DNA from: Clostridia bacterium
GTDB lineage: Bacteria; Bacillota; Thermoanaerobacteria; Thermoanaerobacterales; Thermoanaerobacteraceae
Direction of reading: 5' to 3'
Length of the DNA stretch: 64,000 bases
Assembly: GCA_012840485.1 (NCBI GenBank)
Contig: DULG01000088.1
Location: forward strand, 12,047 to 76,046
The translations under genes were made by a program, and so were the position numbers. Of the stretch, positions 6,843 to 30,583 are shown piece after piece. The stretch's first letter is position 1, and each line of letters starts with the position of its first letter. The notes under the pieces were generated by a model. It was not told where the DNA came from. It was given only the letters and a program-made list of their open reading frames with translations, and did not search any database.

Positions 6843-6868
6843 CCCTTTTGTCTAAAAAGACAAAAGGG
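6843..6868. repeat. Hairpin CCCTTTTGTCT-AAAA-AGACAAAAGGG, degenerate member of the GGGACGGTTC repeat family, probably a terminator
   Basis: 11-bp perfect inverted repeat just downstream of the 6889 stop. Confidence 0.6.
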
Positions 6869-6888
6869 ACCCTCCCGTTGTTTTTTTA

Positions 6889-7338
6889 TTATCCCTCAAT
6901 TTTTTTTATTAACTCAAAAAGCTTCTCCTGACTTTCTTTGTCATTCGGGTTCTTAAGTAATTTTTTTAAAAGTTCACCTAACTCATATCTATTTTCCTTA
7001 ATTTTGTCCAACCATTTTGGTGCACCCCAAAACATATTATTCAATTCTGTAAACGCTTCCGACACAAGCAAATGATTTTTATAAAATCCATTAACTTTAC
7101 ATGCTAATGATAAAGCATACACGGAGCCGGTTATAGAACTAAAAATCACCAAATCTTCTACGCTTCCATTAAATTCTTTGATATTTTCACTTAAGAAGCG
7201 CAATTCACTTAAAAAATAATCGTTAATACTGTCCATTTGGGCTTGATACTTTTGGATTGTTTTATACTGATATAAATTTAAGATCAGTGAAGTTATTAAA
7301 ATTAAAGAAATAGTCCATGATTTAATATTCTTTTTCAA
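6889..7338 (-). CDS. Hypothetical membrane-anchored protein
   Basis: 149-aa ORF with N-terminal TM and GGGGGA RBS. Confidence 0.65.
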   Translation of the reverse strand: MKKNIKSWTISLILITSLILNLYQYKTIQKYQAQMDSINDYFLSELRFLSENIKEFNGSVEDLVIFSSITGSVYALSLACKVNGFYKNHLLVSEAFTELNNMFWGAPKWLDKIKENRYELGELLKKLLKNPNDKESQEKLFELIKKIEG

Positions 7339-7423
7339 TTTTGAGTCCCCCTTTACATTTAACTATTATTACTTTAATTTCTATTTATTTCTATCACATT
7401 TCATTTTCATTAAGTATCAAATT

Positions 7424-8074
7424 TTATTCATCTAATTGACAATATATCTTTACTTCGGCATTTTCTAAAAGTAAATATTCTTCTCCATCCCTCCACTTAA
7501 TTATGAGTTTTATAGGCTTTTTAATGGCTTCCAAAATTTTTTCCCTATCTTTCACATCAATTTGATTTATATTTGGTAACCAGGTAAACCGACTAATTTC
7601 TGTCATATAATCCATCTTCTCATTATTTTTCACATTTAAATCTATCTTCTGCTGATTTAGAGTACCGGAATATAATATCCCAGACATTATATAAGGCTGC
7701 AATCCTTCGTCAACAAATGCTTGTGCTTTAAAGTCTCTTATAACTTTATCACTAATATTTTCTATTATTATCTTATACTGTAAAGAAGTATATTTATTAG
7801 ATTCTTGAGCTTCTTTTGCATTTTTAGCCCATTCAGAAGTTTCATTGCCAGAAAATTTATATTTCTTCCCTACCTCAATCAGAGTATAAATTTTAAAATT
7901 CTTACTTTGTGTAGAATAATTCAAGTCAGGAGCTTTATTAGTATTGTATAAAAATGGATGGCTTCTATTGTAATTATAATAATCATATCCTATCAATGCT
8001 ACTACAACAAAAAGAACTATTAAGGCCCAAAATAACGTACGTTTGGGATTTTTACTACCATTATCTTCTCTCAT
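7424..8074 (-). CDS. Hypothetical membrane-anchored protein
   Basis: 216-aa ORF with a single N-terminal TM. Confidence 0.65.
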   Translation of the reverse strand: MREDNGSKNPKRTLFWALIVLFVVVALIGYDYYNYNRSHPFLYNTNKAPDLNYSTQSKNFKIYTLIEVGKKYKFSGNETSEWAKNAKEAQESNKYTSLQYKIIIENISDKVIRDFKAQAFVDEGLQPYIMSGILYSGTLNQQKIDLNVKNNEKMDYMTEISRFTWLPNINQIDVKDREKILEAIKKPIKLIIKWRDGEEYLLLENAEVKIYCQLDE

Positions 8075-8254
8075 TTTCTAAATTTGCCTCTCTTCTTCTC
8101 CCTTTTCTTCCATTATACCTCTTTAAGTGCCAAAATTTATTAAAAAATTCTTAAATTTTGTTACAATTTATTTCATATATAATGCTCAGTATAATCAAAA
8201 TAATGGGGGAAAAAGCTTAATCGCAATTGTTAATGAAAAAAATTCACATAATAA

Positions 8255-8300
8255 GACGGTTTACTTCATCTGAAAAAACAGATGAAGTAAACCGTCCCCA
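8255..8300. repeat. 18-bp perfect inverted repeat GACGGTTTACTTCATCTG, a member of the GGGGACGGTT family; likely terminator of the natAB operon
   Basis: Arms at 8255-8272 and 8279-8296 with a 6-nt A loop. Confidence 0.75.
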
Positions 8301-8338
8301 GTGTTTGTTTTACTTACATTTGCTAATTATAAAAGTTT

Positions 8339-14901: not shown

Positions 14902-15234
14902 CTATTTTCGTATAAAAACATACAATAAAAAAATGTCAAAAAGTAAAAGTATAACCCCTGCTGCAATATCATATGTCCCATGAAAAATTTTCTTTTTTTC
15001 TTTTGCTTGAGGATATTTTATTGCAATATAAGAAAACAACTGCAATACAGGTATAAAAAATATAAATTCCAACTTAGATACAACATAATTTATATTCCCA
15101 AAAGCATCCCTTTGAAGTGGTATACTTTCAGGTAGATACTTATATGCAAAAATATTTATAATAAAGGTTATAACTGGAAACATCCACCCCCACTTATACA
15201 AATATCTCATTACTCTTTTTGACATTTTTAACAT
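14902..15234 (-). CDS. DUF1648-domain membrane protein
   Basis: YLPESIPLQRDAFGNINY resembles the DUF1648 'LPD.IP.HW...G' motif; GGAGG RBS. Confidence 0.7.
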   Translation of the reverse strand: MLKMSKRVMRYLYKWGWMFPVITFIINIFAYKYLPESIPLQRDAFGNINYVVSKLEFIFFIPVLQLFSYIAIKYPQAKEKKKIFHGTYDIAAGVILLLFDIFLLYVFIRK

Positions 15235-15258
15235 CCTCCTCTCAATTCGCCTGCTTTT

Positions 15259-15304
15259 ATTGTAAATTGTGTTAAATATAAAAACTACTATACTTTTGTA
15301 TAGA
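15259..15304 (-). promoter_or_regulatory. Promoter with 18-bp operator ACTATACTTTTGTATAGA (15287-15304) abutting the -35, 17-bp spacer, -10 TACAAT (15259-15264)
   Basis: Same motif and spacing as at 19010 and 29352. Confidence 0.65.
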
Positions 15305-15334
15305 ACAGAGTTGACTTAAACTTGATATTGTATC

Positions 15335-17002
15335 TTATTCAATTTGATAATACCTCCTATTCCCAAAATAAATCAAAAATTTATAAAAAGCAAAAGTAAT
15401 TATTCCTAATCCAATAGCAATATAAGGCATGTAGATTGCAAGCTTTGATATTCTGGTTACCACATTAATTGACAAAATCACAAATAAAATCAATAAAACC
15501 ATAGATATGAGTACATTGATATTTTGCCTCACCACCACCCTTGGATTCTCCCAATTTAACATGGGTATACAAAATTCACAAAACAATCCTATGATAAAAT
15601 AAATGTTCAATATAAAAAAACCTATCATAAAAGCAAGTACAAGATAAATCAGGCTCAATCCTGTTACAAAAAAACTAAATGAACACGTAAGTATGCCAAA
15701 TATAATGCTTAAAATATTACAATGTAGAAGTTTCGCTTTAATGTATTCTTGAGGATTTATAGGCAATGATTTTAGATAATAAAACATCTTCCCTTCTCGT
15801 GATAAAGCAGTTGATGCTATCATATTAAAACCACCGACTAAAACATATCCTAAAGCTATAAGCAGTGTAATAAAATATTTTGCATTTAAATCTTTTTCTA
15901 TATCAGAAACTACTTTTAGTAAATCTGGCATACCTGAATAAAGAGAATAAAGCGAAAGAAAGGGAATAATTAACGTCATAGCGAATCCATAAATAACAAA
16001 TGTCGAATCACGATAAAAAAGTTTTATGTCTCTCTGTAGCAATGCCATAACCTCACTCTGACGTTTAAAGAGCAACCCTTCCATATTATAAACTTTTTGT
16101 TTATTCTTGTTACTTATCTCTTCGCTGCGGGATATTACATCAACTAAACTGCTTGATAATAACTTTAAAATGAGAATAAGACCTATTAATGAAATGAAAA
16201 TGAAGATTAATAAATATTTAAAAGAAATTATCACTTTTTCTGTAATAGCCTTATAAGCAATATTTACTGGATAAAATATTTTTGAAAAATCTACTAACAG
16301 GGAAAGCTTTTCTTTTATAATACTTACACCTGTATTTTTATTTGCTTCAAAATAATTCTGCATCCCTGTAATTTCTTTAAGTAAAATTATAAAGACAATG
16401 TTTATTATAAAAGCAGTTATATTAGCGAACCCTCTCTTATCAAAAAAATATCCTGCTCTTTGTATTAAAACAAAAACAAAAAATTGCAATGCCATTGGAA
16501 TTACAGGTATTAGCACTATAACTACACAAGCAAAAACATAATATGTAAAAGGTTCATTGAAAGTTATACCATTAATAATCAATACTGGCATAAGTGCAAA
16601 TAGTGAAAGCAATAATTGAAATATATATCCTGGAACAAATCTGCTGAGCAAAATTTGCCATGGTTTTAGTGGTAAAGTCATTACGTAACTATTTTCTCTA
16701 CTATTGCTTACTGTTGAAATGTATGAACCCGCTAAGCCAAACGTTAGTAATAAAAGAAATGTAAAATTTAAAAGCCCCTCTATCATCAAATTTTGTTCCC
16801 TAGTTAACGTTAAATTGTAATAGAGAAATTTGTTAATCTGTATATACGCCTTGAATATATTATAAAATAATAATAAAAGTAACCCATATATGAAAAAGTT
16901 TAAATACAGTTTTTCTTTTTCATACTTCCATGAATACTTAAATCCATGAAATCCATATAAGGACTTATAATTATATTTTATTAAAGTCCATAATTGCTTC
17001 AT
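15335..17002 (-). CDS. ABC exporter permease (large, multi-TM)
   Basis: 555 aa; TLPLKP, ALSREGK and SLPINP motifs typical of ABC-2-like permeases. Confidence 0.8.
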   Translation of the reverse strand: MKQLWTLIKYNYKSLYGFHGFKYSWKYEKEKLYLNFFIYGLLLLLFYNIFKAYIQINKFLYYNLTLTREQNLMIEGLLNFTFLLLLTFGLAGSYISTVSNSRENSYVMTLPLKPWQILLSRFVPGYIFQLLLSLFALMPVLIINGITFNEPFTYYVFACVVIVLIPVIPMALQFFVFVLIQRAGYFFDKRGFANITAFIINIVFIILLKEITGMQNYFEANKNTGVSIIKEKLSLLVDFSKIFYPVNIAYKAITEKVIISFKYLLIFIFISLIGLILILKLLSSSLVDVISRSEEISNKNKQKVYNMEGLLFKRQSEVMALLQRDIKLFYRDSTFVIYGFAMTLIIPFLSLYSLYSGMPDLLKVVSDIEKDLNAKYFITLLIALGYVLVGGFNMIASTALSREGKMFYYLKSLPINPQEYIKAKLLHCNILSIIFGILTCSFSFFVTGLSLIYLVLAFMIGFFILNIYFIIGLFCEFCIPMLNWENPRVVVRQNINVLISMVLLILFVILSINVVTRISKLAIYMPYIAIGLGIITFAFYKFLIYFGNRRYYQIE

Positions 17003-17028
17003 GATCCAGTCATCTCCAGAAAAATTTC

Positions 17029-17724
17029 TTATAAATCCTTTTTGTCATCTTTTTTAATTTTTAACTCATTAATAGTCCCCGTATAAAGTATCCTGCCATT
17101 TTTTATAATTGCGATTCTATCGCATATCTCCTCTGCTATCTGCATAATGTGTGTTGTGATAAATACTGTTTTACCTTGCTGGGCTAAACTCCGCATAATC
17201 TCTTTTAAATTTTTGATTGCTTTTGTATCCAGCCCAATCACTGGTTCGTCCATAATTAAAAGCTCCGGTTCATGAATAAGTACTCCTAAAATCAATAATT
17301 TTTGTTTCATTCCATGCGAATAGCTCTCTATTTTCATATTTAAAGCATCATAAATCTCCAGTATTTTACCATATTTTTCAATGTTTGATTTTCTAATTTT
17401 GCTATCTATTTTATATATATCTGATATAAACCTTAAAAACTCTAATCCTGTAAGTTTACTAAATATATCTGGGTTATCTGGTACATATCCAATTTTTTCT
17501 TTTGCTTTAAGAGGTTCTTTAATTACGTCATATCCATTAATTAAAACTTTTCCGCTATCGGGTTTTAATATACCAGTAATAATTTTTACAGTTGTTGTTT
17601 TCCCAGAACCATTTGGACCAAGAAAACCAAAAATTTCACCTTTATGTACTTCAAGGTTTAATGAATCTACAGCCTTTTTATCGCATCCATAGTATGTCTT
17701 TGATACATTTTCTAAAATAAGCAT
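17029..17724 (-). CDS. ABC ATP-binding protein, probably truncated by 10 aa by a premature TAA
   Basis: GPNGSGKTT, YSHGMKQK, IMDEP; reading past the stop gives in-frame EIFLEMTGS then TGA overlapping the next ATG. Confidence 0.85.
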   Translation of the reverse strand: MLILENVSKTYYGCDKKAVDSLNLEVHKGEIFGFLGPNGSGKTTTVKIITGILKPDSGKVLINGYDVIKEPLKAKEKIGYVPDNPDIFSKLTGLEFLRFISDIYKIDSKIRKSNIEKYGKILEIYDALNMKIESYSHGMKQKLLILGVLIHEPELLIMDEPVIGLDTKAIKNLKEIMRSLAQQGKTVFITTHIMQIAEEICDRIAIIKNGRILYTGTINELKIKKDDKKDL

Positions 17725-17742
17725 AAATAGTGCAGCTCCTTA

Positions 17743-18063
17743 TTAGAAAATTTTTAAATTTATTAAGATGATTACTATATCAACAATTAATACAAATAGA
17801 TTACCAAATATAGAATATAAGTCAGTATAAAGAGTTGTGTTTTTCCCTTTAGTTTTGAGTTTCACATACCCATAAACAAATAATTGCATCAAGGGAATAA
17901 TAAAAACAAATATTGTTTTAGAGACAGTATTTGAAATACTCCCATCAAAGTGCCACTGAATAGCAACTGTCTGTGGCAATGCTTTATAAAAAATGATGTT
18001 TATGATAAATGTGAAAACAGCAAATAACCAATTATTTTTACCAAAAAAATTTATTGCTCTCAT
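17743..18063 (-). CDS. DUF1648-domain membrane protein
   Basis: ALPQTVAIQWHFDGS motif; paralogous to 14902-15234. Confidence 0.75.
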   Translation of the reverse strand: MRAINFFGKNNWLFAVFTFIINIIFYKALPQTVAIQWHFDGSISNTVSKTIFVFIIPLMQLFVYGYVKLKTKGKNTTLYTDLYSIFGNLFVLIVDIVIILINLKIF

Positions 18064-18099
18064 AAAATTTTTCTCCCTTCTTATATTACGTTTTTCTTT

Positions 18100-18960
18100 T
18101 CATTTAACTTTTTTCTTTTCATACAACAAGCTAAATATAAGAACTACAAATATCATTAGAATTATCGTTATAAATATAACAAAATTTGATGCATGTATTT
18201 TATATATGTTGTAATATAATGTATCAAATATCACTAATTCGAAAAGGGAATATATAAGTATTAAAAGTACTGGTAAAAATTTACTTACCATAATCTGCGA
18301 TATGCAATAATACGGCAGAAAAATCCCAATCCATCCCAATATCAATATAATTTCATCTACCACTATTGCTATAGTTTTCTCAACAACCCACTCATCCGGG
18401 TTTCCCGTCAATCCAAAGTGAATATACACCTGGGGTGGTAATTTGACATATAAAATTAAATTAATTACTGTAGATATAGCAAAAATTAACACCGACAAAT
18501 AGATAACATATTTTTTTTCAGTTTTAATGGCATTTTTTGAATTTATATGATTTAAATCTCCTACTTCTTCTACTTTATAACTTCTATTACTATTATAACC
18601 TCGCCTTACCCCATTTTCATCAAATATTTTGTGCAAATGTTTTTCTGTAAGATAAATTATAGATATAAATAAAGGAATTATATAAATACCAAAGGATATT
18701 CCCATTATAGCTGAAGATACATTAAAAATGAACATTATTACATTAATTACAAATAACAATATTGAAAACAAAATGAATAAATCGGCAGAGTATCTATTTG
18801 CTTCTTTGAAAACATCTTCATTTTTTGTAGCAAATTCAGTTCTATAACCATAAAAATAATTTATTTTTTTAGGAGGAAAATATTTTAATACCACCCCTAT
18901 TAATAAAAAGAATAACGGAACACCAAAAGTAAGGAATAATCTACCTATAAAGTCTTCCAT
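18100..18960 (-). CDS. SdpI/YfhL-family immunity protein fused to a DUF1648 domain
   Basis: PPKKINYFYGYRT..A....F.EANRY (SdpI motif) plus LPPQVYIHFGLTGNPD (DUF1648). Confidence 0.8.
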   Translation of the reverse strand: MEDFIGRLFLTFGVPLFFLLIGVVLKYFPPKKINYFYGYRTEFATKNEDVFKEANRYSADLFILFSILLFVINVIMFIFNVSSAIMGISFGIYIIPLFISIIYLTEKHLHKIFDENGVRRGYNSNRSYKVEEVGDLNHINSKNAIKTEKKYVIYLSVLIFAISTVINLILYVKLPPQVYIHFGLTGNPDEWVVEKTIAIVVDEIILILGWIGIFLPYYCISQIMVSKFLPVLLILIYSLFELVIFDTLYYNIYKIHASNFVIFITIILMIFVVLIFSLLYEKKKVK

Positions 18961-19059: not shown

Positions 19060-19838
19060 TTACTCCTTATCTATTAAACCTAATTTAACAGCTTTTGCTA
19101 TAGCTTCTTGTATTTTTTGTAAGCTTTTCCATTATTTTCTTTTTGTGATATTTAACTGTAATGGGTTTAATTTTAAGAAATTTCGCGATAACTATTTCTT
19201 TATATCCCTTAGCTTGCAATTGCAATATTTCTATTGGTTTCCCTTTTAAATCCATTTTTATTTTTTCAATTTCTTTTTCCTTCATTTTCTCTTCGTATTC
19301 ATTTATAATTTTTTCAGACAGCAGTTTTATTACAATAGTCATCTCATCTGCAATTTTTTTATCAATTGTTGATATATCCAAATATCCTATTATCTTTTCT
19401 CCGTTTGTTGCTAATGGCATTGCTATACAATACCATTTTCTAAAAATATCCCAGTAATGCTCCTGTGGTTTTAAACAAACTGCTCTTTTTAATCTCATTG
19501 CCATTGAAATTGCATTTGTACCGCAGCTTTCTTCTTTAAAGGATATCCCCAATCGAAAGCCAGACTGCCTTATGTATTCTTCTTCCTTTATATTACATTT
19601 TACATCTATTAAATATCTTTCTTCATCAGTCAGTAAAAAAAGATATTGTCTTTCTGCCTAATCATTTTCTATACTTCTATTAAAAGCATCTATGAGTACC
19701 TTGTTCTGTGCTATTTTTAATCCTAAATCCCTCTAGATTTAGAATTATTAGTGGTGTAGTTATTGAAGGGTCAATACCCATTTCAGTACAACGTTTATAA
19801 GAAGAAAGCCATTCCCCTTGCGGACATAAAAAATCCAT
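19060..19838 (-). pseudogene. GAF (AcoR-like) plus LuxR-HTH regulator, frameshifted near both ends; paralog of 29440-30237
   Basis: MDFLCPQGEWLSSYKRCTEMGIDPSITTPL start, early frameshift and stops, GISFKEESCGTNAISMAMRLKR core, second frameshift before QEAIAKAVKLGLID*. Confidence 0.85.
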
Positions 19839-20279: not shown

Positions 20280-21473
20280 TCACAGCTCTTTTTCTAATCC
20301 TATTGCCCTTTTAAAAGGTATACTGGAAATTAAAGCTGTAATTAAAGATAAGAAAAGTGCAGCATAAAGACCCTTTTTGTCACTTAAGACTCCAAAGGAG
20401 TAAATACATAGAATTGTAGAAACACTAATAAACAAACTATATATTGAAATAATCGTTGCACGCTCTGAAGAAGGTATTAACTTATTAAAATAAGACATAA
20501 AAATCGGAGTGTGTGCAGAATATACTGCTGTATAAATAATATAAGGTATAAACGAATACTTGGGAATCGCATACATCATAAATATAAACAATGCAGATGT
20601 AATACTGACAATCATTAGTGTGCGAGCTGCCCCTTTAAATCTTTCAGCTATCCTGTCAGCATAACGGGGCACAAAAATACTAAGTACCATCGTTAATGCT
20701 AAAATAATACCAAACAATTCTACAGGTATGCCTGCCCGTTCGAAATAGGGCTGCCACAACATTGACATGATTCCCGATGAAAAGAAAAAGAAAAAAGCTC
20801 CAATTGTAATAAATAATAAAATCTCATGTTTAAATAGATACACAGTTCCTTTAGCAATTTTATTAAAATACTCTCTGTAACTGTATTCGTCCGTTTTTTT
20901 CTCTAATTTAGCTTCTTTGCCCGCTAAAAATACGTAAATAAAAACCAAAAAAATCCCTATACCTTCTATTAGCCAGATTTCTCTAAAGATATTATAACGT
21001 ACTAAAACGCTGCCTCCTAAAAATCCTATCGTACTACCTAAATAGTTAAAACTTGTAAGACGTCCCCAGTATTTTGTCAGGTCTATTTCTTTTTGACCCA
21101 AAAGAAACGAATCAGCAAACCAAGATTCAAAGGCTCCAGAATTAAGAGTTGCTCCAACTCCTGATAAGAAATATAAAAATAATAAAACTGTAAAAGAGGT
21201 GTTGAAATATATCCCAATAGAAGTTAAACTGCCAATCAATAAAGATAAAAGAACAGAAAATTTACGGCTATATGTATCAGCAAAAGCACCCGTAGGTATT
21301 TCGAATAATATGACCGCTATGTGGTTTATTATTATGAGGAGTGAAATTTGTGAAAAATCTAAATTAATTTTATTAAAATATATTACCCAAAATGGTGCCA
21401 TTAAAGATGTAAAAAAACTTGAAAACAATGTTACCGTCAAGAAAAATCGTACATTCCTTTTTAAATTTTGCAT
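20280..21473 (-). CDS. MFS transporter (probable exporter)
   Basis: 12-TM pattern; FEIPTGAFADTYSRK motif A and SGAFESW. Confidence 0.88.
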   Translation of the reverse strand: MQNLKRNVRFFLTVTLFSSFFTSLMAPFWVIYFNKINLDFSQISLLIIINHIAVILFEIPTGAFADTYSRKFSVLLSLLIGSLTSIGIYFNTSFTVLLFLYFLSGVGATLNSGAFESWFADSFLLGQKEIDLTKYWGRLTSFNYLGSTIGFLGGSVLVRYNIFREIWLIEGIGIFLVFIYVFLAGKEAKLEKKTDEYSYREYFNKIAKGTVYLFKHEILLFITIGAFFFFFSSGIMSMLWQPYFERAGIPVELFGIILALTMVLSIFVPRYADRIAERFKGAARTLMIVSITSALFIFMMYAIPKYSFIPYIIYTAVYSAHTPIFMSYFNKLIPSSERATIISIYSLFISVSTILCIYSFGVLSDKKGLYAALFLSLITALISSIPFKRAIGLEKEL

Positions 21474-22459
21474 TTATTTAAATCCTCCTCTGAAGGAATA
21501 AATTTACCAAATGTTAGGAAGTTTTCAGCAATACAATAATTCGTAGAACAGAAGCGAGCAAATTCACATTTGGTACACAGAAATTTTTTGCTTAATCTTT
21601 TGGAATAACTTCTTATCCTTTTTGCTTTCTCACTATTCCATATTTCAAAAATATCTTGTGATTTTATGTTGCCTAGAATTATTTTATCATCTACTCTTTG
21701 CTCGAAAATCCGGCATGGAAGTACATTCCCATCAGGTTGAATTTCAAAACCGACGTTTATATTGCAACCTGGAACCTTTTGGTCTTCAATAGACTTGGGT
21801 ACATCTCCCATTATTTGGTACAATGTTTGACAATTGTTGCCCCCAATCCCAAGGTTTCAAGCGTGCAAATTTAACTGAAGTAACTCCCAAATCGCTTAAC
21901 AATTTTACAATTTCTTCTATTTGCATCATATTATGTTTTCCGTAAGTTACTTCAACTTCCACTTGAAATGCATTTGAAAATTTTTTCAAATTTGAAATTG
22001 AAGAAAAAACCTTTTTAAATGTCCCCTCTCCCCTGATAAAATCATGAGTCTCGCTATTACTTCCTTCTATTGATAAACTATAACTTACTACGTGATAAGA
22101 ATTCATTATCTCAATCTTTTCTTTCGATAAATTTATACCATTAGTAACTAGTTCAATAGGGATTTTGTGTTGATTAAATATTTCCATAATTTTAAAAAAA
22201 TCCTTTCTAACTGTTGGTTCGCCACCATTAAAATCTCGTATTTCTCCATTTGTTCAGCCAATTTTTTTATATCATCTAATTCTAATTCTTTTATTTGGTA
22301 ATGTCTTAAACTCCCAACCAAACAGTGTTTACATTTTAAATTACATTTATAAGTTAATAGTAGTGATAATACTAACGGTGATTCGAATTCATAAATGTGG
22401 TCAATACTATAGTTTGTATTATTTCCTTCTCTGTTCTCTCCAATAATTATTTTCTGCAA
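21461..22459 (-). pseudogene. Radical SAM/SPASM enzyme (PqqE/MftC-like architecture) split by two frameshifts
   Basis: CNLKCKHC in the first piece; GGEPTVRKD in the shifted frame; VTNG; SPASM C..C..CTKCEFARFCSTNYC in the last piece. Confidence 0.85.
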
Positions 22460-22553
22460 TGGCTTACTAATTGCGCTGCTTATGGAATTCTCGAGATATT
22501 TTTTATTAATTTATACCATATATATTCCCACAAAATCTTATCATATCTAATTC

Positions 22554-23324
22554 TCAATACTCATTCCATATCCCTTCAACTTTACTTTTATTGTAAATAT
22601 ATCTAAAAAAGGATATACCAATGATAAAATATAAAAAGCTATTTATGCATAACAAAAACATCTGACTGAAAAATACAGGCTGCTTGTCAATTAAACTCTG
22701 TGAAATTAATATGCCCTGTGTTAAAGGCAAACTTTTGCTAATAATTTGAAATAAGATTGGCATGGAATTAATATCAATTATCGTCCCCGTAAAAAATAAT
22801 AAAATGTAAGATAAAATAGTCTCAAAAGAAGCCGTTTTAGTAAATCTTAAAGTCAGTCCTCCTAATAATAAACTAAAGCCCAATAGTCCTATTAACGTAA
22901 TTATTAAAATGGGTATTATTTTTATATTAAAAACTATATTTATGGGTAAGGTTAATTTGATAACTATAAATAATACCATAACTTTGATAAAAGTAATTGC
23001 AAGCCATGTTAGTGTTTTTATTAAACATATTACTTCTAAAGATACAGGCTTTAGAAGCAACTGTTCTAATGTACCTACTTGTTTTTCAAAGGATATCGAT
23101 ACAGATACCTCACTTATTATGTTAGCCGCGAGAAACCAATATAAAAAGCCAATGTAATAACTGTCTTTTACAGCAGCATAATTTCTAAATTCCAAAAAGA
23201 ATCCTGCAAAAAATATATAAGTTACAATCATATTTACTATATGATCGGGGTAATAAGTTTTTACTTCGATCATATACTTAGATAATTCCGCTTTTATAAT
23301 ATTAAACATCTTCAAAGCTGTCAC
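22554..23324 (-). CDS. ABC-2 type permease
   Basis: FEKQVGTLEQLLLKP motif, 6 TM, LPLTQGI. Confidence 0.85.
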   Translation of the reverse strand: MTALKMFNIIKAELSKYMIEVKTYYPDHIVNMIVTYIFFAGFFLEFRNYAAVKDSYYIGFLYWFLAANIISEVSVSISFEKQVGTLEQLLLKPVSLEVICLIKTLTWLAITFIKVMVLFIVIKLTLPINIVFNIKIIPILIITLIGLLGFSLLLGGLTLRFTKTASFETILSYILLFFTGTIIDINSMPILFQIISKSLPLTQGILISQSLIDKQPVFFSQMFLLCINSFLYFIIGISFFRYIYNKSKVEGIWNEY

Positions 23325-24261
23325 TTCCTAACTTCAAAAATTTGTACATTATATCTTCAAGGCTATCTTGGCTTTTAGAAATATGAGTAACATAAATATT
23401 TCTTTTTACCATATCACCTAAAAAGCTATTTATAAGCCTATTACTATCAATATAAACTTCTATTTCAGTAATATCATTTTCCCTGCGCACCACATTAACT
23501 GTATCAAAATACTTTTTTATTTCTGCATCATCTAAATTTCTTTCCACTCTTATTAAATATTTATTGCCTGAATATTTATTTATCAACTTATCTACTGTAT
23601 CCAAAAATTGTATTTTCCCTTCACCTAATATCATCACTCTATCAGCTACTTTTTCAACGACATCCATTTGATGTGACGTAATAATAACTGTCACACCCTC
23701 CTCCTTTGACAAATGTTTTATTTTTTCAATCATGTCCATTTTAGACACCACATCAAGCCCTAAAGTTGGCTCATCTAAAAACAATATCTTTGGTTCATGG
23801 AGTAATGAGATTATAATTGATAATTTTTGCTGCATCCCTCTTGAAAAATTCCCTACTTTTTTATCTTTATCCTCATATAGCCCAAAAAATTTTAATAATT
23901 CCTCTCCTCTTTCTCTAATTTCTTTTTCTTTTAACCCCATCAATCTTCCGAAATAAAGTATATTTTCATAAGCCGACAAATACCAATAAATATTTCTATT
24001 ACCTTCTAACACAACTCCGATTTCAGTGTAGTAATCCTTTCCTATAGTTGTAATTTCCATATTTTTATATAAAATTTTCCCTTTTGAAGGAGTTAATAAA
24101 TTAACCATCAATTTTATCAATGTAGTTTTACCTGCGCCATTTTCTCCTAATATGCTGAAAATTTCTCCTTTATCAACATGAAAACTTACTGAATCTAAAA
24201 CCAATTGCTTTTTTCTATTTGTCTTATATGTTTTGGATAGCTCTTTTATTTCTAATATCAT
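23302..24261 (-). CDS. ABC transporter ATP-binding protein
   Basis: GENGAGKTT, FSRGMQQK, FLDEPT and C-terminal SLEDIMY. Confidence 0.92.
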   Translation of the reverse strand: MILEIKELSKTYKTNRKKQLVLDSVSFHVDKGEIFSILGENGAGKTTLIKLMVNLLTPSKGKILYKNMEITTIGKDYYTEIGVVLEGNRNIYWYLSAYENILYFGRLMGLKEKEIRERGEELLKFFGLYEDKDKKVGNFSRGMQQKLSIIISLLHEPKILFLDEPTLGLDVVSKMDMIEKIKHLSKEEGVTVIITSHQMDVVEKVADRVMILGEGKIQFLDTVDKLINKYSGNKYLIRVERNLDDAEIKKYFDTVNVVRRENDITEIEVYIDSNRLINSFLGDMVKRNIYVTHISKSQDSLEDIMYKFLKLGSDSFEDV

Positions 24262-24482
24262 ACTAATCTTTTTTCCTCCATTCTGTTTGGAGCTTTAACA
24301 TAAGTATAGCAAAAATAACAGTAATATTACTTTATAATAAATAATATTATGACAAAACCAAAAAGTAATATCACAGAATTTAATTACTTTAACAAGCAGA
24401 TATTGATTTTAAGCTACTACAGGTAGAATTTGGTATGTTGTTATATTTGAGTCTAACTTCCTTGAAAACTCTCAACTACCAT

Positions 24483-25757
24483 TTATTTATTTCCCTTGGC
24501 ACTATTTTTATAGTTCTCTACAATTAATGGAATATCATTTTCATCCAATTCTTGTTTAGGACATATATTACCGTAAACATTCTTTTTATATACACACCAT
24601 CCTCCGCAAATAATTTTATAATCACAATCAGTACATTCAGAATTCATATTTTCTTTTTCTATAAATTGACTAACTCTGGAATAATAATAATGGCTTCCAT
24701 ATTCAGATATATGTGAAATTAAGTATTGTGTATTACCAATTCCAGATATACACTTATAGAGATATCCATCCGGACTAATTATAAATACGTTGTCCCTAAA
24801 AAAACTACATGTAAAATAACTATTTCTGTAGAAAGGCACATAATTATTTCCATACTTTAAACCTATTTTATGTGCATTTAACCAAGCTTTATTTATGTCG
24901 TTTTTATAAGCATATTTAAAAGAATTCTTTCTAGACTCAAATACTATACTAAAAAACACGGGATAATTTATTCTTTTTTTTCTTAATTCTATAAACAATT
25001 CTTCAATATGATTTATATTCAACAAATTAATGTTGCAGTTTATTACAATATTGATTGATTCATTAAACTCCTTAGAAATAGCTTCTAGATTATTTATTAT
25101 CTTATTGTAACTTCCACTGTTGTCCATTCCAATTCTCAACTGATCATGGATTTTTTGTGGTCCATCTAATGTTACTTGTAGCAAATCTATTTTCATATTT
25201 ATGAGTTCATTAACTGTTTTTTTGTTAAGTAAAGTCCCATTCGTAATAATCGATTTGATAATTTTGAGAGATTTTCCTTCATTCGATATTCCATTAATAA
25301 TATTTTTAATTTTTCTCTTATGTAACAAAGGTTCTCCTCCAATAAAACATAGTTCAATTTGCTCTGGACTTGTCTTTTTAACAATTCCTTTAATAAATTT
25401 AATTACATCTTTTTCTGTTTCCTCAGTCATAACCTTTTTACTTTTTATTTCCCTTTGATAACAATAAACACATCTTAAATTACAGTTGTAATTTAAATGA
25501 ATTATGAAAGAAACTGAACGACTCGAATACTTAATTTTATTCATAACCATTTTAACAAGTTTTTCTTCATCTATTTCGCTAAATTGTAAATATAATTCTT
25601 TCCTTAAATATTGTAATTCTTCTTGGTTCAATTTTTTAATAAATATTTCTACATCTTCTTTAGAAGTAGGTAAAGATATTAAAGAATTAGTAATTGAATT
25701 ATACAAAAGAGTTTTTTTATCATCTACAGGTATTTTAATTACATATTTGCTTAACAA
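24483..25757 (-). CDS. Radical SAM/SPASM peptide maturase with an N-terminal extension (probable RRE)
   Basis: CNLRCVYC, GGEPLL, TNG, QVTLDG; SPASM Cys set C..C..CTDCDYKIICGGWC..C; about 90-aa N-terminal extension. Confidence 0.9.
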   Translation of the reverse strand: MLSKYVIKIPVDDKKTLLYNSITNSLISLPTSKEDVEIFIKKLNQEELQYLRKELYLQFSEIDEEKLVKMVMNKIKYSSRSVSFIIHLNYNCNLRCVYCYQREIKSKKVMTEETEKDVIKFIKGIVKKTSPEQIELCFIGGEPLLHKRKIKNIINGISNEGKSLKIIKSIITNGTLLNKKTVNELINMKIDLLQVTLDGPQKIHDQLRIGMDNSGSYNKIINNLEAISKEFNESINIVINCNINLLNINHIEELFIELRKKRINYPVFFSIVFESRKNSFKYAYKNDINKAWLNAHKIGLKYGNNYVPFYRNSYFTCSFFRDNVFIISPDGYLYKCISGIGNTQYLISHISEYGSHYYYSRVSQFIEKENMNSECTDCDYKIICGGWCVYKKNVYGNICPKQELDENDIPLIVENYKNSAKGNK

Positions 25758-25785
25758 GATTTTTTACCTCCTATTCTTGATTATT

Positions 25786-27072
25786 TTATGTACAGAGTTG
25801 AATTATACCTTCAACTATTCCATTTTGGATTTCTTCTTTTTTGCAGAGAACTTTATTAATATCATATTTGTTCTCTATTTTTTCTCTTTTACACCCCCCC
25901 ATACAAAAAGGTAAAAATGTACACGTCTTACATCTTTCTTCATATTCTATTTCATCTTCATCATAACTATACAACTTTAATAGAATCATGTCTGTATCAT
26001 CCTTAATGTTTCCTATAATAAATTTATCACTACCGATTCCGTATATACACTTACTTATATTCCCGTTGGGTTCTATTATAATCGAATTCTTTCTATTAGC
26101 TAAACAAGGTCCATATCCTATAAATTCATCATTCTCTTTGTTATAACCATATATTTTCAAACTCTTTAATAAAGTTTTATATATTATAGCTAATTCATCA
26201 GGTTTTAGTTTATGCACTCTCGAAATATTATTTTCAGTACTTATCAAAGAATTAAACTTTATATAAACTTTGTTTCTGTATTTTTTAGGAAATATATCTA
26301 AAAATTTAATTATACTTCTGTAATTATATTTATCAAAATTCATATTGATTACAATCTCAAACCCATTATCTATTAACATCAAAAGATTATTATATATCTT
26401 TTTAAACGTTCCAGAGCCATCATGTAAAAATCTTCTTTCGTCATGGCATCTTTCAATTCCATCAATAGTTATCTGAAAACTGTTAATATTTAATTTTTTG
26501 AAGTTTTCAATCATCTTTTCATCAATTAAATATCCATTAGTCACTATGTTAACCAGACTTCTAATTCCAAAATTATTTTCTATGTAACATAAAAACATAC
26601 AAACTTTTTCTATTGTCTTCATTTCTAGCAATGGTTCCCCGCCAAAAAAGTTAAAATCTATAACACGACACCTACTTTTAATAATAACATTCTCTAAAAA
26701 TTGCAGCATTTTGTCTAGTTCCATGTTTTTATAATTTTTTTCTTTTTTAAAACCTTCATAACAATATGGACATTTAAAATTACAATTGTATGTCGTTAAA
26801 AATGTTACAATAAAATATTCATTTTGCCATTTTTGCTTATTTAACCAATACTTATACAATAAAAATTCATCTATATCATCATCCACTATAAACCCTAATT
26901 CACATAAATCTTTATATTTTTTTTTGGCAGTATGATAATTTATTTTTTTTATATTTTCTTTAAGCTGGTAGTATTCTCCTCTTTCTATAGAGATAATTGA
27001 TCTCGTTAATGTATTAAAAATTATAACGTTATTATCTAAAGTCTTCTCATAATTAAAAACCGAAAATTTCAT
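25786..27072 (-). CDS. Radical SAM/SPASM peptide maturase with an N-terminal extension (probable RRE)
   Basis: CNFKCPYC, GGEPLL, TNG, QITIDG; SPASM C..C..CKTCTFLPFCMGGC..C; AGGAGG RBS. Confidence 0.9.
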   Translation of the reverse strand: MKFSVFNYEKTLDNNVIIFNTLTRSIISIERGEYYQLKENIKKINYHTAKKKYKDLCELGFIVDDDIDEFLLYKYWLNKQKWQNEYFIVTFLTTYNCNFKCPYCYEGFKKEKNYKNMELDKMLQFLENVIIKSRCRVIDFNFFGGEPLLEMKTIEKVCMFLCYIENNFGIRSLVNIVTNGYLIDEKMIENFKKLNINSFQITIDGIERCHDERRFLHDGSGTFKKIYNNLLMLIDNGFEIVINMNFDKYNYRSIIKFLDIFPKKYRNKVYIKFNSLISTENNISRVHKLKPDELAIIYKTLLKSLKIYGYNKENDEFIGYGPCLANRKNSIIIEPNGNISKCIYGIGSDKFIIGNIKDDTDMILLKLYSYDEDEIEYEERCKTCTFLPFCMGGCKREKIENKYDINKVLCKKEEIQNGIVEGIIQLCT

Positions 27073-27261
27073 ATTTAATTTTCTCCTCCTATGTTATCTT
27101 CTATTTTCTCTCATTATTTAGCTTTTTTAATTTTTCTATCATAATAAGGTAGATATCATTAAAGAATATACCAGGTATTTCTATTATCATTTTATTCACT
27201 GGATCTCTGCCTTTAATTCTTTTTTTATCTGCTATTATGCTCTTTAAATTATAATGTAAAC

Positions 27262-27798
27262 TTATTTTAACTTTTTCAAAATTTGTATAAAATCTAGTAC
27301 GTTTTCAACTTTAATTATTCTATCATCATCTATTACTAAATCTGTCAATTTAGGCACTAAAAAATAATCATACTGTCTTTCTTTAAAAATACTAAACTTT
27401 TCTTTCATCCCACCAACTTCTAAAACATTTCCGTATAAATCTATTTCACCAGTTGCTAAAATATTTTTACCTTCTACATATTTCCGCATGTTCTCATCCA
27501 AACAACTATACATAACAGACATAAAAATTCCTAACCCTGCAGAAGTTCCATCTTTATAAATACTCCCATTAGTAAAATGTACATGAAAATCGAATTCATT
27601 AATTATTTTTTTATCTATTTTTAACAAAATATAGTTGCTTTTTATTACTGAAAGTGCAACTTGTACCATTTCCGCAATTGCATTACCTACAACTCCTGTA
27701 ACCAAGCAGTTACCGTTGCCATTCTCAAACCTCATACATTGCACCGAAAAACAATCAACAATACCTTCATTATTTATGGCAGGTACATCTATTCTCAT
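27262..27798 (-). CDS. Stand-alone Lon protease proteolytic (S16) domain, no AAA+ module
   Basis: HVHFTNGSIYKDGTSAG (catalytic Ser) and TGEIDLYGNVLEVGGMKEK (catalytic Lys) align to E. coli Lon PKDGPSAG / TGEITLRG..IGGLKEK; GAGGAG RBS. Confidence 0.88.
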   Translation of the reverse strand: MRIDVPAINNEGIVDCFSVQCMRFENGNGNCLVTGVVGNAIAEMVQVALSVIKSNYILLKIDKKIINEFDFHVHFTNGSIYKDGTSAGLGIFMSVMYSCLDENMRKYVEGKNILATGEIDLYGNVLEVGGMKEKFSIFKERQYDYFLVPKLTDLVIDDDRIIKVENVLDFIQILKKLK

Positions 27799-28043
27799 TT
27801 TTCTCCTCTCCCATTAGTATAAACAATAAATTGGAAATAAGTAATTAATAAAAAATATGATTACTTTCTTATTTTTCTTATTTTCCCTTTACATATATTT
27901 CGTTTTATTAATGTGATATAGTATAGTACAGTTAAAATTTGGAGATATTTCTTTAATCAATATATTTTTACATATTTTTTGTGCCGCTATTCTTATTTCG
28001 TTTTGAAAATCCCTGTTGAAATCAATATTTCTTTATATTTACA

Positions 28044-28089
28044 AGCATAGCATAATAAGTATTGTCTACAGTACTTATTATGCTATGCT
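28044..28089 (-). terminator. 18-bp perfect stem-loop downstream of the precursor peptide gene (terminator or mRNA-stabilising hairpin)
   Basis: AGCATAGCATAATAAGTA (28044-28061) / TACTTATTATGCTATGCT (28072-28089). Confidence 0.75.
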
Positions 28090-28101
28090 ATTTAATGAAT
28101 T

Positions 28102-28233
28102 TTAATCAATAGTTAAACGCTGTGTTTTTCTGCAACATGAATAAATCAAATCAGCATTTTCGATCTTGTGTCCAGTTCTAATAACTTTAACTTTTTTTAA
28201 TTCATTAGATTGCTTCTCCTGTTTTTGAGTCAT
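28102..28233 (-). CDS. Putative RiPP precursor peptide, 43 aa: MTQKQEKQSNELKKVKVIRTGHKIENADLIYSCCRKTQRLTID
   Basis: Manual translation (below the ORF-track cutoff); strong AGGAGGTG RBS 6 nt before ATG; first gene of the rSAM operon; followed by a strong hairpin. Confidence 0.8.
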   Translation of the reverse strand: MTQKQEKQSNELKKVKVIRTGHKIENADLIYSCCRKTQRLTID

Positions 28234-28388
28234 CGCTTACACCTCCTTCTTTTTTAAATATTTGGTCTTTGCAGAATCCTAAAATCCTTATGTATTGAAA
28301 GATTCTGCTGTATATTTTCAAAGGAATTCCTCCACTTTTTTTGAATTTATAGAAAGAGACAAATCCCCAAAAAAAGGGAGGAACTCCT

Positions 28389-28835
28389 ATGAAAACTGAA
28401 GCTAAATAAACACTATTTTTTGCCGATATTTACGATAATGTTTAAACCTTTTTCTGAAGAAGATAAATTTAAGTTTATTAAACTCTTTGATTACTTTATT
28501 GATTTTTCTAAACTTACTCCATCTTCTTTCTATAACCATTATTATTCTCAATTTGACGTCATAGAGATTTTTATCTTGAATCTATGCTTACTGCTTTGTT
28601 TATTCAAAAAATCCTTTCTATTTCTACTTTTCAACTCCGTGCTTATGTCTTTAAACTCTTTAAAGAATTAAGAGAACTTTATGGCTTTAAAAGAGTCCCT
28701 CATCCTTCCAATTCCCTAGATTTAAATCCATTTTCCTCAAAGATTTGGAGAATTTCTTCAATAATCTTGTTAATTTAACTGAATCTATTTGTCAGCCTAT
28801 TAATCCTTCACTTTCCAATATACTCTTGGTTTAAT
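28389..28835 (+). mobile_element. Degraded IS transposase, N-terminal part (ISNCY/IS1182-like; family uncertain)
   Basis: Stitched frames give MKTEAK*..SFYNHYYSQF..RDFYLESMLTALFIQKILSIST..KELRELYGFKRVPHPSQFPRFKSIFLKDLENFFNNLVNLTESIC; several stops and frameshifts; GCAGAATC/GATTCTGC inverted repeat near 28271-28308. Confidence 0.7.
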
Positions 28836-29323
28836 TATTATGCAGAACTTGGTGCCTTCGAATATCCTCTATTTTTGAAAAAGTTTTTGGCTTGGTAATT
28901 TGTTCTTATAGTTTGAATATACCTGACTTTCTATTTCCCAGTGTAAGATTGACTTTTATTTTTCTATGTTTAAGAATTTAGACTTGTTTTTAATACCGGA
29001 ATCTCTTTATGTTGCTATTGTAGTTGTTAAGCTAAGTAAATTTTGTAAGTTTAAGTTTTTTATTAATCTGATGCAATTGACTTAATTTTCACTAAATTTA
29101 GTTTGGGCCACTTTTCAATATTTGACTTTCAGAGGATATTTATGATTTTTTAGCTACTCTTTTGTCTTTTCTTATCCCTGACTATTTTCTTTGTGTTTAA
29201 TTGTCAGTTTTGATTATTATATATTTTATATCATACATACTTTGTTTTTTAATTCTGATTATTTTAATTTACTTTGCATAATCATAACATTTCTGACATT
29301 TCTGCACTTATTTTTTTATTTTC

Positions 29324-29369
29324 ACTATACAATGAAACTAATAGCATGTCTACTATATTTTAGTATAGT
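29324..29369 (-). promoter_or_regulatory. Promoter with operator ACTATATTTTAGTATAGT (29352-29369), -35 TAGACA, 17-bp spacer, -10 TATAGT, pointing to the RiPP cluster
   Basis: Same geometry as 19010 and 15287. Confidence 0.65.
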
Positions 29370-29413
29370 TTTTATTACATTTCCAGTTAATGTTTACATA
29401 AATAAGCAAAAAA

Positions 29414-29431
29414 ACTATACAAAAGTATAGT
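29414..29431. promoter_or_regulatory. Perfect palindromic operator copy ACTATACAAAAGTATAGT
   Basis: Reverse complement of the 19010-19027 copy; 62 bp from the 29352 copy. Confidence 0.65.
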
Positions 29432-29439
29432 CTCAAATT

Positions 29440-30237
29440 TTAATCCACATCTACCAGTCCCAACTTAATTGCCTTTATTACTGCCTCTTTAGTGTTTTTT
29501 ACTCCAAGTTTTTCTACTATCTTTCTTTTGTGATATTTCACAGTCACAACCCCTATCCCAAGAGCTTCTGCTATGTCTGATTCTCTGTATCCTTTTGCCT
29601 CTAATTCCAGTATTTTTATCTGGCTGTCATTTAATTTTATCTTTATCTCATTTATCTCTTTTTCTTTTACTATCTTTTCATATTCACTCGCTATTTTTTC
29701 AGCCAGCAGTTTTATTACCATTGATACTTCACTTGTGATTTTTTTGTCAATAGTTGATATATCCACATAGCCTACTATTTCCCCGTTTTCTACTATTATA
29801 GGTGAAGCAATGCAGTGCCATTTTTTAAATATGTAACAGTAGTGTTCCTGAGGTCTTACATACACTACCCTTTTTAATCTCATTGCCATTGAAATCGCAT
29901 TTGTCCCACAGCTTTCTTCTCTAAAGGATATTCCCCGTTCAAAGCCTGAATCTTTTATACATTTTTTCCCTTTTGTACTGCATTTTACATCCATCAAATA
30001 TCCTTCAATATCAGTAAGCAAAAATAGATACTCGCCTTTTACCCACTCCTCTTCTACACTCATATGAAAAGCTTCTATGAGTTCTTTATTTTTATGTACT
30101 TTCTTTTGCAAATCTTCTGGATTTAATATCACCAATGGCAGAGTTATTGAAGTGTCAATACCAATTTCTATACATTGTTTATATGAAAAACTTAGTTCTT
30201 CTTGCGGACATGAAAAATTCATTTTTATACCCTCCAA
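29440..30237 (-). CDS. Transcriptional regulator: AcoR-like GAF domain plus C-terminal LuxR HTH
   Basis: GISFREESCGTNAISMA, HYCYIFKKWHCIASPI (GAF); LNDSQIKILELEAKGYRESDIAEALGIGVVTVKYH..KIVEKLGVKN (LuxR HTH). Confidence 0.9.
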   Translation of the reverse strand: MEGIKMNFSCPQEELSFSYKQCIEIGIDTSITLPLVILNPEDLQKKVHKNKELIEAFHMSVEEEWVKGEYLFLLTDIEGYLMDVKCSTKGKKCIKDSGFERGISFREESCGTNAISMAMRLKRVVYVRPQEHYCYIFKKWHCIASPIIVENGEIVGYVDISTIDKKITSEVSMVIKLLAEKIASEYEKIVKEKEINEIKIKLNDSQIKILELEAKGYRESDIAEALGIGVVTVKYHKRKIVEKLGVKNTKEAVIKAIKLGLVDVD

Positions 30238-30325
30238 AAAGATTGAACCGTTTTTTAATTATTATACAATATTTAGAACAAGATTTGTGAAATAATAGTA
30301 CGATGCACAATAAGGATCGCACATT

Positions 30326-30583
30326 TTACCTATGCCACCACATACCCAGTCCAAAGGACAATAATAAATTGAACATCCCATTACTGGCCATAAGATCTAC
30401 TTGTACAGAATCTGGTTTTACAATATCTTTAGAATTCCTAGAATTTAGTGTTTCAATTAAATACTCCATTAGATCACACCCTTTCGGAATATGCAATCTT
30501 TTTATCAATAGTTGATTACCATATTCCCATTTTTTATTATTATAGGCGAGGTAATAAAAATGAGGAGAATAATCTCCTCCCAT
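30326..30583 (-). CDS. Small hypothetical ORF or remnant
   Basis: 85-aa ORF directly after glgA; no motif recognised. Confidence 0.3.
   Translation of the reverse strand: MGGDYSPHFYYLAYNNKKWEYGNQLLIKRLHIPKGCDLMEYLIETLNSRNSKDIVKPDSVQVDLMASNGMFNLLLSFGLGMWWHR

Follow-up and report, generated by a model that had tools for sequence, protein, structure and literature searches.

Introduction

Does an open reading frame (ORF) of only 43 codons, placed at the head of a clostridial gene cassette, encode the substrate of the radical S-adenosylmethionine (rSAM) enzymes whose genes follow it and, if so, what would these enzymes make of it? The ORF lies on the minus strand at 28102..28233 of a stretch of 64,000 nucleotides (hereafter the window; contig DULG01000088.1, positions 12,047 to 76,046, assembly GCA_012840485.1) from a Clostridia bacterium of the family Thermoanaerobacteraceae. 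A first-pass annotation, made from the letters of the window and a list of its ORFs, had proposed that this is an unannotated precursor peptide, with a Lys/Val-rich strand in its leader and a modified core, Y-S-C-C-R. The computational analysis reported here makes it very likely that the ORF encodes the precursor of a RiPP, a peptide made by the ribosome and altered after its translation, and that it founds an unnamed family marked by the core consensus Y-[SA]-C-C-[RK]-K-[TS]-Q-R; a pathway along which the precursor would mature is proposed below. The cassette as a whole belongs to a broad known kind, that of the RiPPs modified by rSAM enzymes with a SPASM domain (rSAM/SPASM). In the following, we describe the precursor gene and the family to which it belongs, the enzymes encoded next to it, the chemistry that they might perform and the alternatives to this chemistry, and the distribution of the cassette.

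The precursor gene

The gene starts with an ATG at 28233 and its TAA stop codon ends at 28102; read on the minus strand from 28233 to 28102, it is translated as MTQKQEKQSNELKKVKVIRTGHKIENADLIYSCCRKTQRLTID, followed by TAA. The leader comprises approximately residues 1-28, with a conserved K-V-K-V-I-R-T-G inside it, and is followed by the conserved core, Y31-S-C-C-R-K-T-Q-R39, and by a variable tail of four residues. The ribosome-binding site (RBS), AGGAGGTG, is found on the same strand at 28240..28247, its GGAGG being separated from the ATG by 8 nt, and a GGAGG-type RBS stands 6-10 nt before the start codon in 6 of the 7 family loci that were compared.

On its minus strand, the window does contain the small ORF, its RBS and the perfect hairpin of 18 base pairs that the first-pass annotation had pointed out. 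This stem-loop occupies 28044..28089, on the same strand, between the precursor gene and the gene of the Lon_C protein that comes next in the cassette, and begins 15 bases past the precursor stop codon. It consists of an 18-bp perfect stem and 2 inner pairs and has a free energy of -25.5 kcal/mol (z = -6.95 in comparison with 200 shuffled sequences, none of which folds as well); two further analyses also detect it. In each of the other six loci compared, a hairpin of unrelated sequence stands at the same place after the precursor stop codon.

The host genome holds a single copy of the precursor. The peptide is called by the gene callers of ENA, JGI and Logan and is absent from the NCBI proteins, among which its neighbours are present, and no model of Pfam or NCBIfam matches the window peptide or any of 19 relatives; its description as unannotated was, in this sense, accurate.

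Two further elements lie on the upstream side of the gene. On the minus strand, a terminator-like hairpin with a T-run lies shortly upstream of the precursor, at 28379-28364, and at about 28262-28290, ahead of the RBS, there is an inverted repeat, GCAGAATC...GATTCTGC. A scan of positions 27000-30500 with Rfam returned only chance microRNA-like matches on hairpins.

A peptide family under protein-level selection

A search with the window peptide as a single sequence returned only the peptide itself. In metagenomes of biogas fermenters and comparable sources, at least 24 contigs carry the identical peptide; being strain variants of the window locus with more than 99% identity, they are unusable for the ratio of nonsynonymous to synonymous substitution rates (dN/dS). 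The family was reached through the contigs that carry homologs (36-51% identity) of rSAM1, the first of the two rSAM enzymes of the cassette. Each of these contigs has an ORF of 41-50 codons that is followed by genes for Lon_C, for two rSAMs and for the two parts of an ATP-binding cassette (ABC) transporter of the ABC-2 type, and every such ORF encodes a peptide with ...YSCCRK.Q.... A profile built from seven peptides gave 16 matches in an exhaustive search of 1.84 billion representative proteins, and one built from twenty peptides gave 56 clusters in a word-index search. In total, the family comprises 59 distinct peptides from metagenomes and metagenome-assembled genomes (MAGs).

Counted from the core Tyr, which is invariant (position 0, 59/59), the core has Ser (44 of the 59 peptides) or Ala (15) at +1, Cys at +2 (58/59) and again at +3 (59/59), Arg (34) or Lys (25) at +4, Lys at +5 (57/59), Thr (43), Ser (13) or Lys (3) at +6, Gln at +7 (59/59) and Arg at +8 (54/59). 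The three residues without exception correspond to Tyr31, Cys34 and Gln38 of the window peptide. The Y-S-C-C-R singled out beforehand as the core does lie in the middle of the one block that is strongly conserved, which is longer than had been proposed and reads Y-S-C-C-R/K-K-T/S-Q-R. After the Gln, the peptides end in a variable tail of 2-12 residues. On the other side, a motif of the form [IV]-[KT]-[VI]-[IVLF]-x-x-G is fixed 10-16 residues ahead of the Tyr, with hydrophobic residues at -16, -14 and -13 and Gly at -10 (51/59); it is in this form that the Lys/Val stretch of the leader is conserved among the 59 peptides.

At the level of DNA, the invariant columns are encoded by codons that vary among loci (TAT/TAC, TCA/TCT, TGT/TGC, AGA/CGG, AAA/AAG, CAG/CAA). 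When 14 loci were compared in 91 locus pairs by the method of Nei and Gojobori, the proportion of synonymous differences (pS) in the nine core codons was 0.87 and that of nonsynonymous differences (pN) was 0.11; the values for the leader were 0.72 and 0.46, respectively. Since the ORF is conserved beside homologous rSAM genes and pS greatly exceeds pN in the core, it is a real gene under purifying selection at the protein level. The first-pass annotation had named the lack of an equivalent ORF beside homologous rSAM genes and the lack of conservation at synonymous sites as observations that would refute its proposal; this refutation clearly fails, the ORF being conserved beside such genes and selected at the protein level.

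The number of Cys residues in a family peptide is two, as in the window peptide, or sometimes three. A subset of the peptides (P0129, P0135, P0138, P0148, P0149, P0150, P0153, P0155 and P0156) has the extra Cys at or near the C-terminus (…QRC, …ILC, …VMC, …QIC), which hints that these members have either a disulfide or a third link through sulfur.

Gene order of the cassette

The downstream context could be read in 13 family loci (the window, L031, L032, L034, L036-L038, L061 and L071-L075), and in all 13 the precursor is the first gene of the cassette. The order peptide, Lon_C, rSAM1, rSAM2, ABC ATPase, ABC-2 permease is found in the window, in L032, L034/L035, L036, L037, L038 and L061, and in L072, a MAG of the Lachnospiraceae (GCA_017429445). 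In the window these genes are all on the minus strand and encode a Lon_C (S16) domain protein of 178 residues (27262..27798; Pfam PF05362, 83 bits), the rSAM/SPASM enzymes rSAM1, of 428 residues (25786..27072), and rSAM2, of 424 residues (24483..25757), and an ABC-2 type exporter (22554..24261), of which the ATPase is encoded at 23302-24261 and the permease at 22554-23324.

The other loci vary this arrangement. A stand-alone Lon_C gene is present in 12 of the 13 loci and missing from L075. Every locus has from one to three rSAM/SPASM enzymes with a domain like the RiPP recognition element (RRE), and an ABC ATPase with a membrane partner is encoded 3' of the rSAM genes in 12 loci. No ABC exporter was called in the remaining one, L031, a two-rSAM cassette broken up by insertion sequence (IS) elements. 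Lon_C is accompanied by one rSAM in L073 and in L071, another MAG of the Lachnospiraceae (GCA_017938285); a single rSAM is also found in L075, and L074 has an extra, third one.

The radical SAM enzymes

Both enzymes have the CxxxCxxC motif and seven SPASM Cys residues, which are invariant in 7/7 members of each. In the AlphaFold2 models, which have a predicted local distance difference test score (pLDDT) of 92.7 and a predicted template modelling score (pTM) of 0.90 for rSAM1 and of 91.7 and 0.91 for rSAM2, an N-terminal beta3-alpha3 domain with the layout of an RRE precedes the TIM-like core. The idea that the leader docks as a beta-strand on an RRE, put forward in the first-pass annotation, is consistent with the RRE-like domains predicted for both enzymes. 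When the models were compared with known structures by Foldseek, CteB (5WGG/5WHY) was the best match of each, with a full-length alignment of 440-468 columns and template modelling (TM) scores of 0.70-0.73 (0.73 for rSAM2), followed by anSME, TigE, SuiB, ChlB and SkfB, of which TigE and SuiB likewise align over the full length; CteB was also the top match of both enzymes in sequence searches of the PDB. The fold therefore identifies them as peptide maturases of the RRE-rSAM-SPASM type and leaves their chemistry unfixed. Those generic features of the class that can be read from sequences and models are present, namely a conserved ORF with leader and core and a maturase with CxxxCxxC, SPASM Cys and an RRE-like domain.

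The two enzymes do not have the same standing in the family. The single rSAMs of L071, L073 and L075 group with rSAM2, both by BLAST and in a maximum-likelihood tree, in which rSAM1 forms a clade of its own (support 100/100), is split from rSAM2 by a 98/99 branch and sits nearer to other clostridial rSAMs. It follows that rSAM2 is the universal partner of the family and rSAM1 a recruited accessory, which is restricted to the YSCCRK subfamily, being found only where the core is YSCCRK with a hydrophobic residue before the Tyr. The earlier view of rSAM1 and rSAM2 as close paralogs had to be corrected, as they belong to different lineages. A recent tandem duplication, which had also been considered, is rejected by the tree.

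The stand-alone Lon-type peptidase

In seven family members, the Lon_C protein has an invariant Ser in DG[TS]S and an invariant Lys in GG..K, presumably the catalytic dyad, to judge from S679 and K722 of the Lon protease of Escherichia coli. With the models of Pfam and NCBIfam, Lon_C is the only domain recognised in the protein, which lacks an AAA+ module as well as a PDZ domain and membrane segments; models of full-length Lon give 38-77 bits against cut-offs of 517-891. On the basis of its sequence, the protein is proposed to be a cytoplasmic leader peptidase. It would resemble SepM in using an S16 Ser-Lys peptidase domain to process a small secreted peptide, and the corresponding profile gives a weak match (23.9 bits against 200). 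SepM is membrane-anchored, has a PDZ domain and trims a peptide that has already been exported, whereas the protein of the window is a bare catalytic domain of 178 residues without an anchor. In the literature searched, no account was found that links a Lon-type peptidase to the maturation of rSAM RiPPs.

Comparison with known systems

The window cassette shares with SCIFF (CteA-CteB, 5WGG) and with PapA-PapB (freyrasin) a small Cys-containing precursor that adjoins an RRE-rSAM-SPASM enzyme, and CteB is the enzyme that both window rSAMs match best. Cys residues that are separated by three residues from their acceptor are known from ranthipeptides such as the substrates of PapB, and the C-x3-T and C-x3-Q of the window peptide resemble this spacing. 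The SCIFF precursor has six Cys in a C-terminal Cys-rich region, whereas the window peptide has two adjacent ones and, in addition, the invariant Tyr and Gln; the window cassette differs also in its Lon_C peptidase and in that its thioether is a predicted one. In CefA, the substrate of CefB, Cys recurs at every fifth residue, in contrast to the adjacent Cys of the window peptide. CefB (NF038107), TIGR04463, Clo7bot (TIGR04334) and the geopeptide maturase (TIGR04280) are the top rSAM profile matches, with 129-196 bits; these families, defined computationally, comprise maturases of Cys-containing small peptides, their cut-offs (400-600 bits) are far above the scores of the window enzymes, and the window precursor matches none of their companion peptide models.

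Thuricin CD (TrnA/TrnB with TrnC/TrnD) offers a different parallel, with two adjacent rSAM/SPASM enzymes that retain their clusters and an ABC transporter; TrnC and TrnD work as one complex (PMC12093266). Thuricin CD has two precursors, the window one. The thuricin core is a hairpin with three sactionines, whereas that of the window is a nine-residue motif with two Cys, and the two window enzymes are of different lineages, with rSAM1 dispensable in part of the family.

In the streptococcal RaS-RiPPs TQQ, RRR and NxxC, a lone SPASM rSAM acts on a short conserved motif close to the C-terminus of the precursor (PMC9389541): TqqB makes a Thr-Gln ether, RrrB an Arg-Tyr link and NxxcB a beta-thioether (PMC9389541). 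The window motif holds every residue type that is used there (adjacent T-Q, Y...R and C). The precursor sequences are otherwise different, and the window has no shp/rgg quorum-sensing genes but a Lon_C peptidase. As far as the motif alone is compared with that of TQQ, T-Q is present in 43 of the 59 family peptides, including that of the window, S-Q in 13 and K-Q in 3.

No match for the peptide motif was found in the literature searched. Since the window system falls outside SCIFF, PapB, CefB, RumMC and thuricin CD alike, and no account of it turned up in that literature, precursor family and accessory protease both appear to be new. About 15,000 RRE-associated rSAMs have been listed (PMC10288494), and, given that many rSAM-RiPP groups are uncharacterised, a further family comes as only a moderate surprise. 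Its motif, its natural series of loci with one, two and three rSAM genes and its Lon domain nevertheless define it uncommonly well as a target.

Proposed maturation pathway and possible chemistry of the core

In the pathway that we propose, the precursor mRNA would be translated from its strong RBS, and the stem-loop that follows the gene is likely to terminate transcription in part or to stabilise the transcript, so keeping precursor transcripts above those of the enzymes. A short beta-strand of the basic leader, [IV]-K-[VI]-[IVL]-K-x-G, would dock on the RRE-like N-terminal domain of the rSAM/SPASM enzymes, and rSAM2 would modify the nine-residue core, in the favoured reading by linking the sulfur of one Cys or of both to carbons of residues close by, in thioether bonds. 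A second and different modification might be added by rSAM1, or rSAM1 might serve as a partner subunit in the manner of TrnC/TrnD. The stand-alone Lon-type Ser-Lys peptidase would then remove the leader inside the cell, and the ABC-2 transporter would export the product and/or protect the producer.

Thioether formation is the chemistry that we favour, with moderate confidence, because the Cys are invariant, CteB is the nearest structure, PapB (121 bits for rSAM2) is the best-scoring of the NCBIfam models known to be experimentally characterised, and the core offers the spacing C-x3-T/C-x3-Q (C33-x3-T37 and C34-x3-Q38). In rSAMs that form thioethers, the Cys is activated on an auxiliary cluster (PMC9389541).

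Several points weigh against the pathway as a whole or against some of its steps. Both enzymes match many models of peptide maturases but stay below the cut-offs of all named NCBIfam families: CefB gives 196 bits for rSAM1 and 192 for rSAM2 against a cut-off of 600, PapB 102 and 121 against 340, SCIFF (TIGR03974) 74 and 82 against 425, and RumMC (NF035951) 72 against 720; the PapB model is NF047865. The fold does not discriminate among chemistries, for SuiB, which makes carbon-carbon (C-C) bonds, TigE, ChlB and anSME are also good matches. The hairpin behind the precursor gene stands as the first-pass annotation had described it, with the correction that the coding strand has no U-tract after the stem, so that it is not a textbook intrinsic terminator. 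In one metagenomic protein, P0139, the core is YSSCRKSQN, where Ser replaces the first Cys and Asn the Arg at +8, and two thioethers, therefore, cannot be universal; position +6, the Thr of the proposed spacing, is Lys in three peptides. Finally, the peptides of one-rSAM loci have the form K-E-Y-[AS]-C-C-K-K-T-Q-R and those of two-rSAM loci the form [hydrophobic]-Y-S-C-C-R-K-[ST]-Q-[RKH], with Arg at +4 in 10 two-rSAM loci versus Lys in 3 one-rSAM loci, and this suggestive correlation between core sequence and number of rSAM genes represents two clades only and no independent sample.

A core whose defining modification is not a Cys thioether is rather unlikely. The modification would then be a Thr-Gln aliphatic ether (a morpholine, as with TqqB) and/or a C-C link of Tyr31 to Arg35 or to a Lys (as with RrrB), and the Cys pair would have some other role, for instance to form a disulfide, to bind a metal or to be recognised. 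The residues required are in place, since Thr or Ser precedes the invariant Gln directly in 56 of the 59 peptides, the Tyr is invariant and the Arg at +4 tracks rSAM1 in the loci just mentioned; the SPASM fold, moreover, is common to enzymes that form C-C and C-O bonds, with SuiB and ChlB among the top fold matches. However, the second Cys is as invariant as the Tyr and the Gln and the first is conserved in 58 of 59 peptides, the enzyme that matches best in both sequence and fold, CteB, forms thioethers, and PapB has the best score of those NCBIfam models that are known to be characterised. TqqB joins an adjacent Thr-Gln pair and RrrB joins the gamma-carbon of Arg to the ortho position of Tyr, but TqqB barely accepts Ser (PMC9389541), which is found at +6 in 13 family peptides, with Lys there in 3 others, and Arg35 is replaced by Lys in 25 of 59.

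It is unlikely that rSAM1 and rSAM2 form an obligate complex on one substrate, in the way of TrnC/TrnD, with only one of them supplying the essential radical chemistry. In 10 loci the two genes lie side by side and are conserved together, both enzymes have kept all of their cluster-binding Cys and the RRE-like domain, and thuricin CD provides a precedent (PMC12093266). Yet three loci have an rSAM2-type enzyme alone, and rSAM2 is presumably able to act without a partner; rSAM1, for its part, is of a different lineage, and its presence tracks changes in the core, which fits an added reaction better.

It is highly improbable, and close to refuted, that the ORF encodes no substrate at all and is due to chance, or that its product is a leader peptide with a regulatory role or a small basic protein that has a function of its own and is only encoded upstream of the enzymes. 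Short ORFs are frequent in AT-rich DNA, and no family model recognises the peptide. Against this reading, the nine-residue motif is kept across 59 peptides with synonymous change saturated, the gene stands ahead of those for RRE-bearing rSAM/SPASM enzymes at the head of the cassette in all 13 loci, and its RBS is strong in 6 of the 7 loci compared.

Distribution, host and mobility

The host belongs to the Thermoanaerobacter group: the GlgA encoded in the window falls into one cluster, at an identity of at least 90%, with proteins of Thermoanaerobacter kivui, T. uzonensis and a Caldanaerobacter sp. Among 60 relatives of the host, none has a close homolog of rSAM1, the best match being 30% identical. 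The cluster (20280-29439) has a GC content of 24.5-29% (24.5% in the rSAM genes and 27.8% in the ABC genes) against about 35% (35.7%) in the adjacent glycogen genes; this difference is consistent with horizontal acquisition, and the cassette looks, from its composition, like one acquired in this way by a host of the Thermoanaerobacter group.

The family is rare and often on mobile DNA. A search of 185,579 species genomes with the peptide alignment gave no confirmed locus. A degenerate DNA pattern found 12 stretches in the same genomes, of which one is real (L047, a Lachnospiraceae MAG) and 11 are due to chance, and 20 stretches in the JGI metagenomes, of which two are real; these counts are lower bounds, because the pattern fixed Ser as TCN and so missed the YACC subfamily. 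The peptide is present in one of 401 Lachnospiraceae species genomes. All of these prevalence figures are lower bounds. In the PLSDB plasmids the family is absent, the only matches being rSAMs of Clostridium perfringens with 28-30% identity. The contig of L032 (8.3 kb, 1-8312) has a direct terminal overlap of 25 bp and genes of the Rep3 and Mob_Pre types, with the six-gene cassette as its only cargo, and is probably a complete circular mobilisable plasmid devoted to the peptide system. IS elements flank L031, L034 and L061.

Genes around the cassette in the window

Past the exporter, the minus strand of the window continues with a broken third rSAM/SPASM gene (21461..22459), which is split over three frames, contains fragments of Radical_SAM and SPASM and lies outside the conserved cassette, and with a transporter of the major facilitator superfamily (20280..21473), a local accessory that is absent from other family loci. 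The only other third rSAM is that of L074, to which this remnant is unrelated, and an ancestral cassette with three rSAM genes is therefore unsupported.

On the other side, 1.2 kb upstream of the precursor, the minus strand encodes a MimR_N/GerE (LuxR-type) protein (29440..30237), possibly a local regulator; this gene is not conserved in the family, the other loci having different regulators or none. A truncated paralog of this GerE-type regulator, in the same orientation as the intact copy, is found at 19085-19552, at the far end of the island. The gap between regulator and precursor (28234-29439) contains no recognisable gene, as judged from Pfam searches of its ORFs and from Rfam, and is the most divergent part between two strain types of the locus, with 93-96% identity against 99.3% elsewhere.

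The second strain type (L022:262-5889 and L022:14141-15061, and also L023, L025 and L026) is 99.3% identical across the cassette. It encodes, between the ABC permease and the remnant of the third rSAM, an Rce1/CPBP-like membrane protease of 306 residues, a member of a family often annotated as bacteriocin self-immunity proteins. Upstream of the regulator, which is split into two ORFs in this strain type, there is another cluster of two rSAM genes and ABC genes.

Genes related to SdpI were observed at two loci. In L073 (5756-6662), a helix-turn-helix gene of the ArsR type and a DUF1648/SdpI gene are directly upstream of the cassette, and in the window an SdpI/DUF1648 operon (14902-18960) lies about 10 kb from it. 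A link of SdpI-like proteins with the peptide family, possibly in immunity or sensing, has thus gained some independent support. A reading of the island as a defence system was dropped, as PADLOC returned only generic similarity to the viperin core.

Concluding remarks

One tiny ORF, absent from the NCBI proteins, has thus led to a testable family of 59 members with a sharp motif and a fixed cassette, in which the universal rSAM2 can be separated from the accessory rSAM1. For assigning the reaction of each enzyme, a comparison is offered by the natural variants with one and with two rSAM genes and by the Tyr, Cys and Gln that never change in the core. If its role is confirmed, the stand-alone Lon leader peptidase would be a new type of protease for RiPP biosynthesis and, possibly, a tool enzyme. 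Only tentatively would we go further and regard the cassette as a new RiPP class, in which two unrelated rSAMs build a multi-crosslinked core of nine residues that is freed by a Lon-type leader peptidase; such a core might combine, for example, a thioether with a Tyr- or Thr/Gln-centred link, a pairing not seen before. The hosts of the cassette are thermophilic bacteria of biogas reactors and uncultured Lachnospiraceae known from MAGs and, given such hosts and the frequent association with mobile DNA, the product, which may be an antibiotic or a signal, could be of importance where members of anaerobic communities compete or signal.

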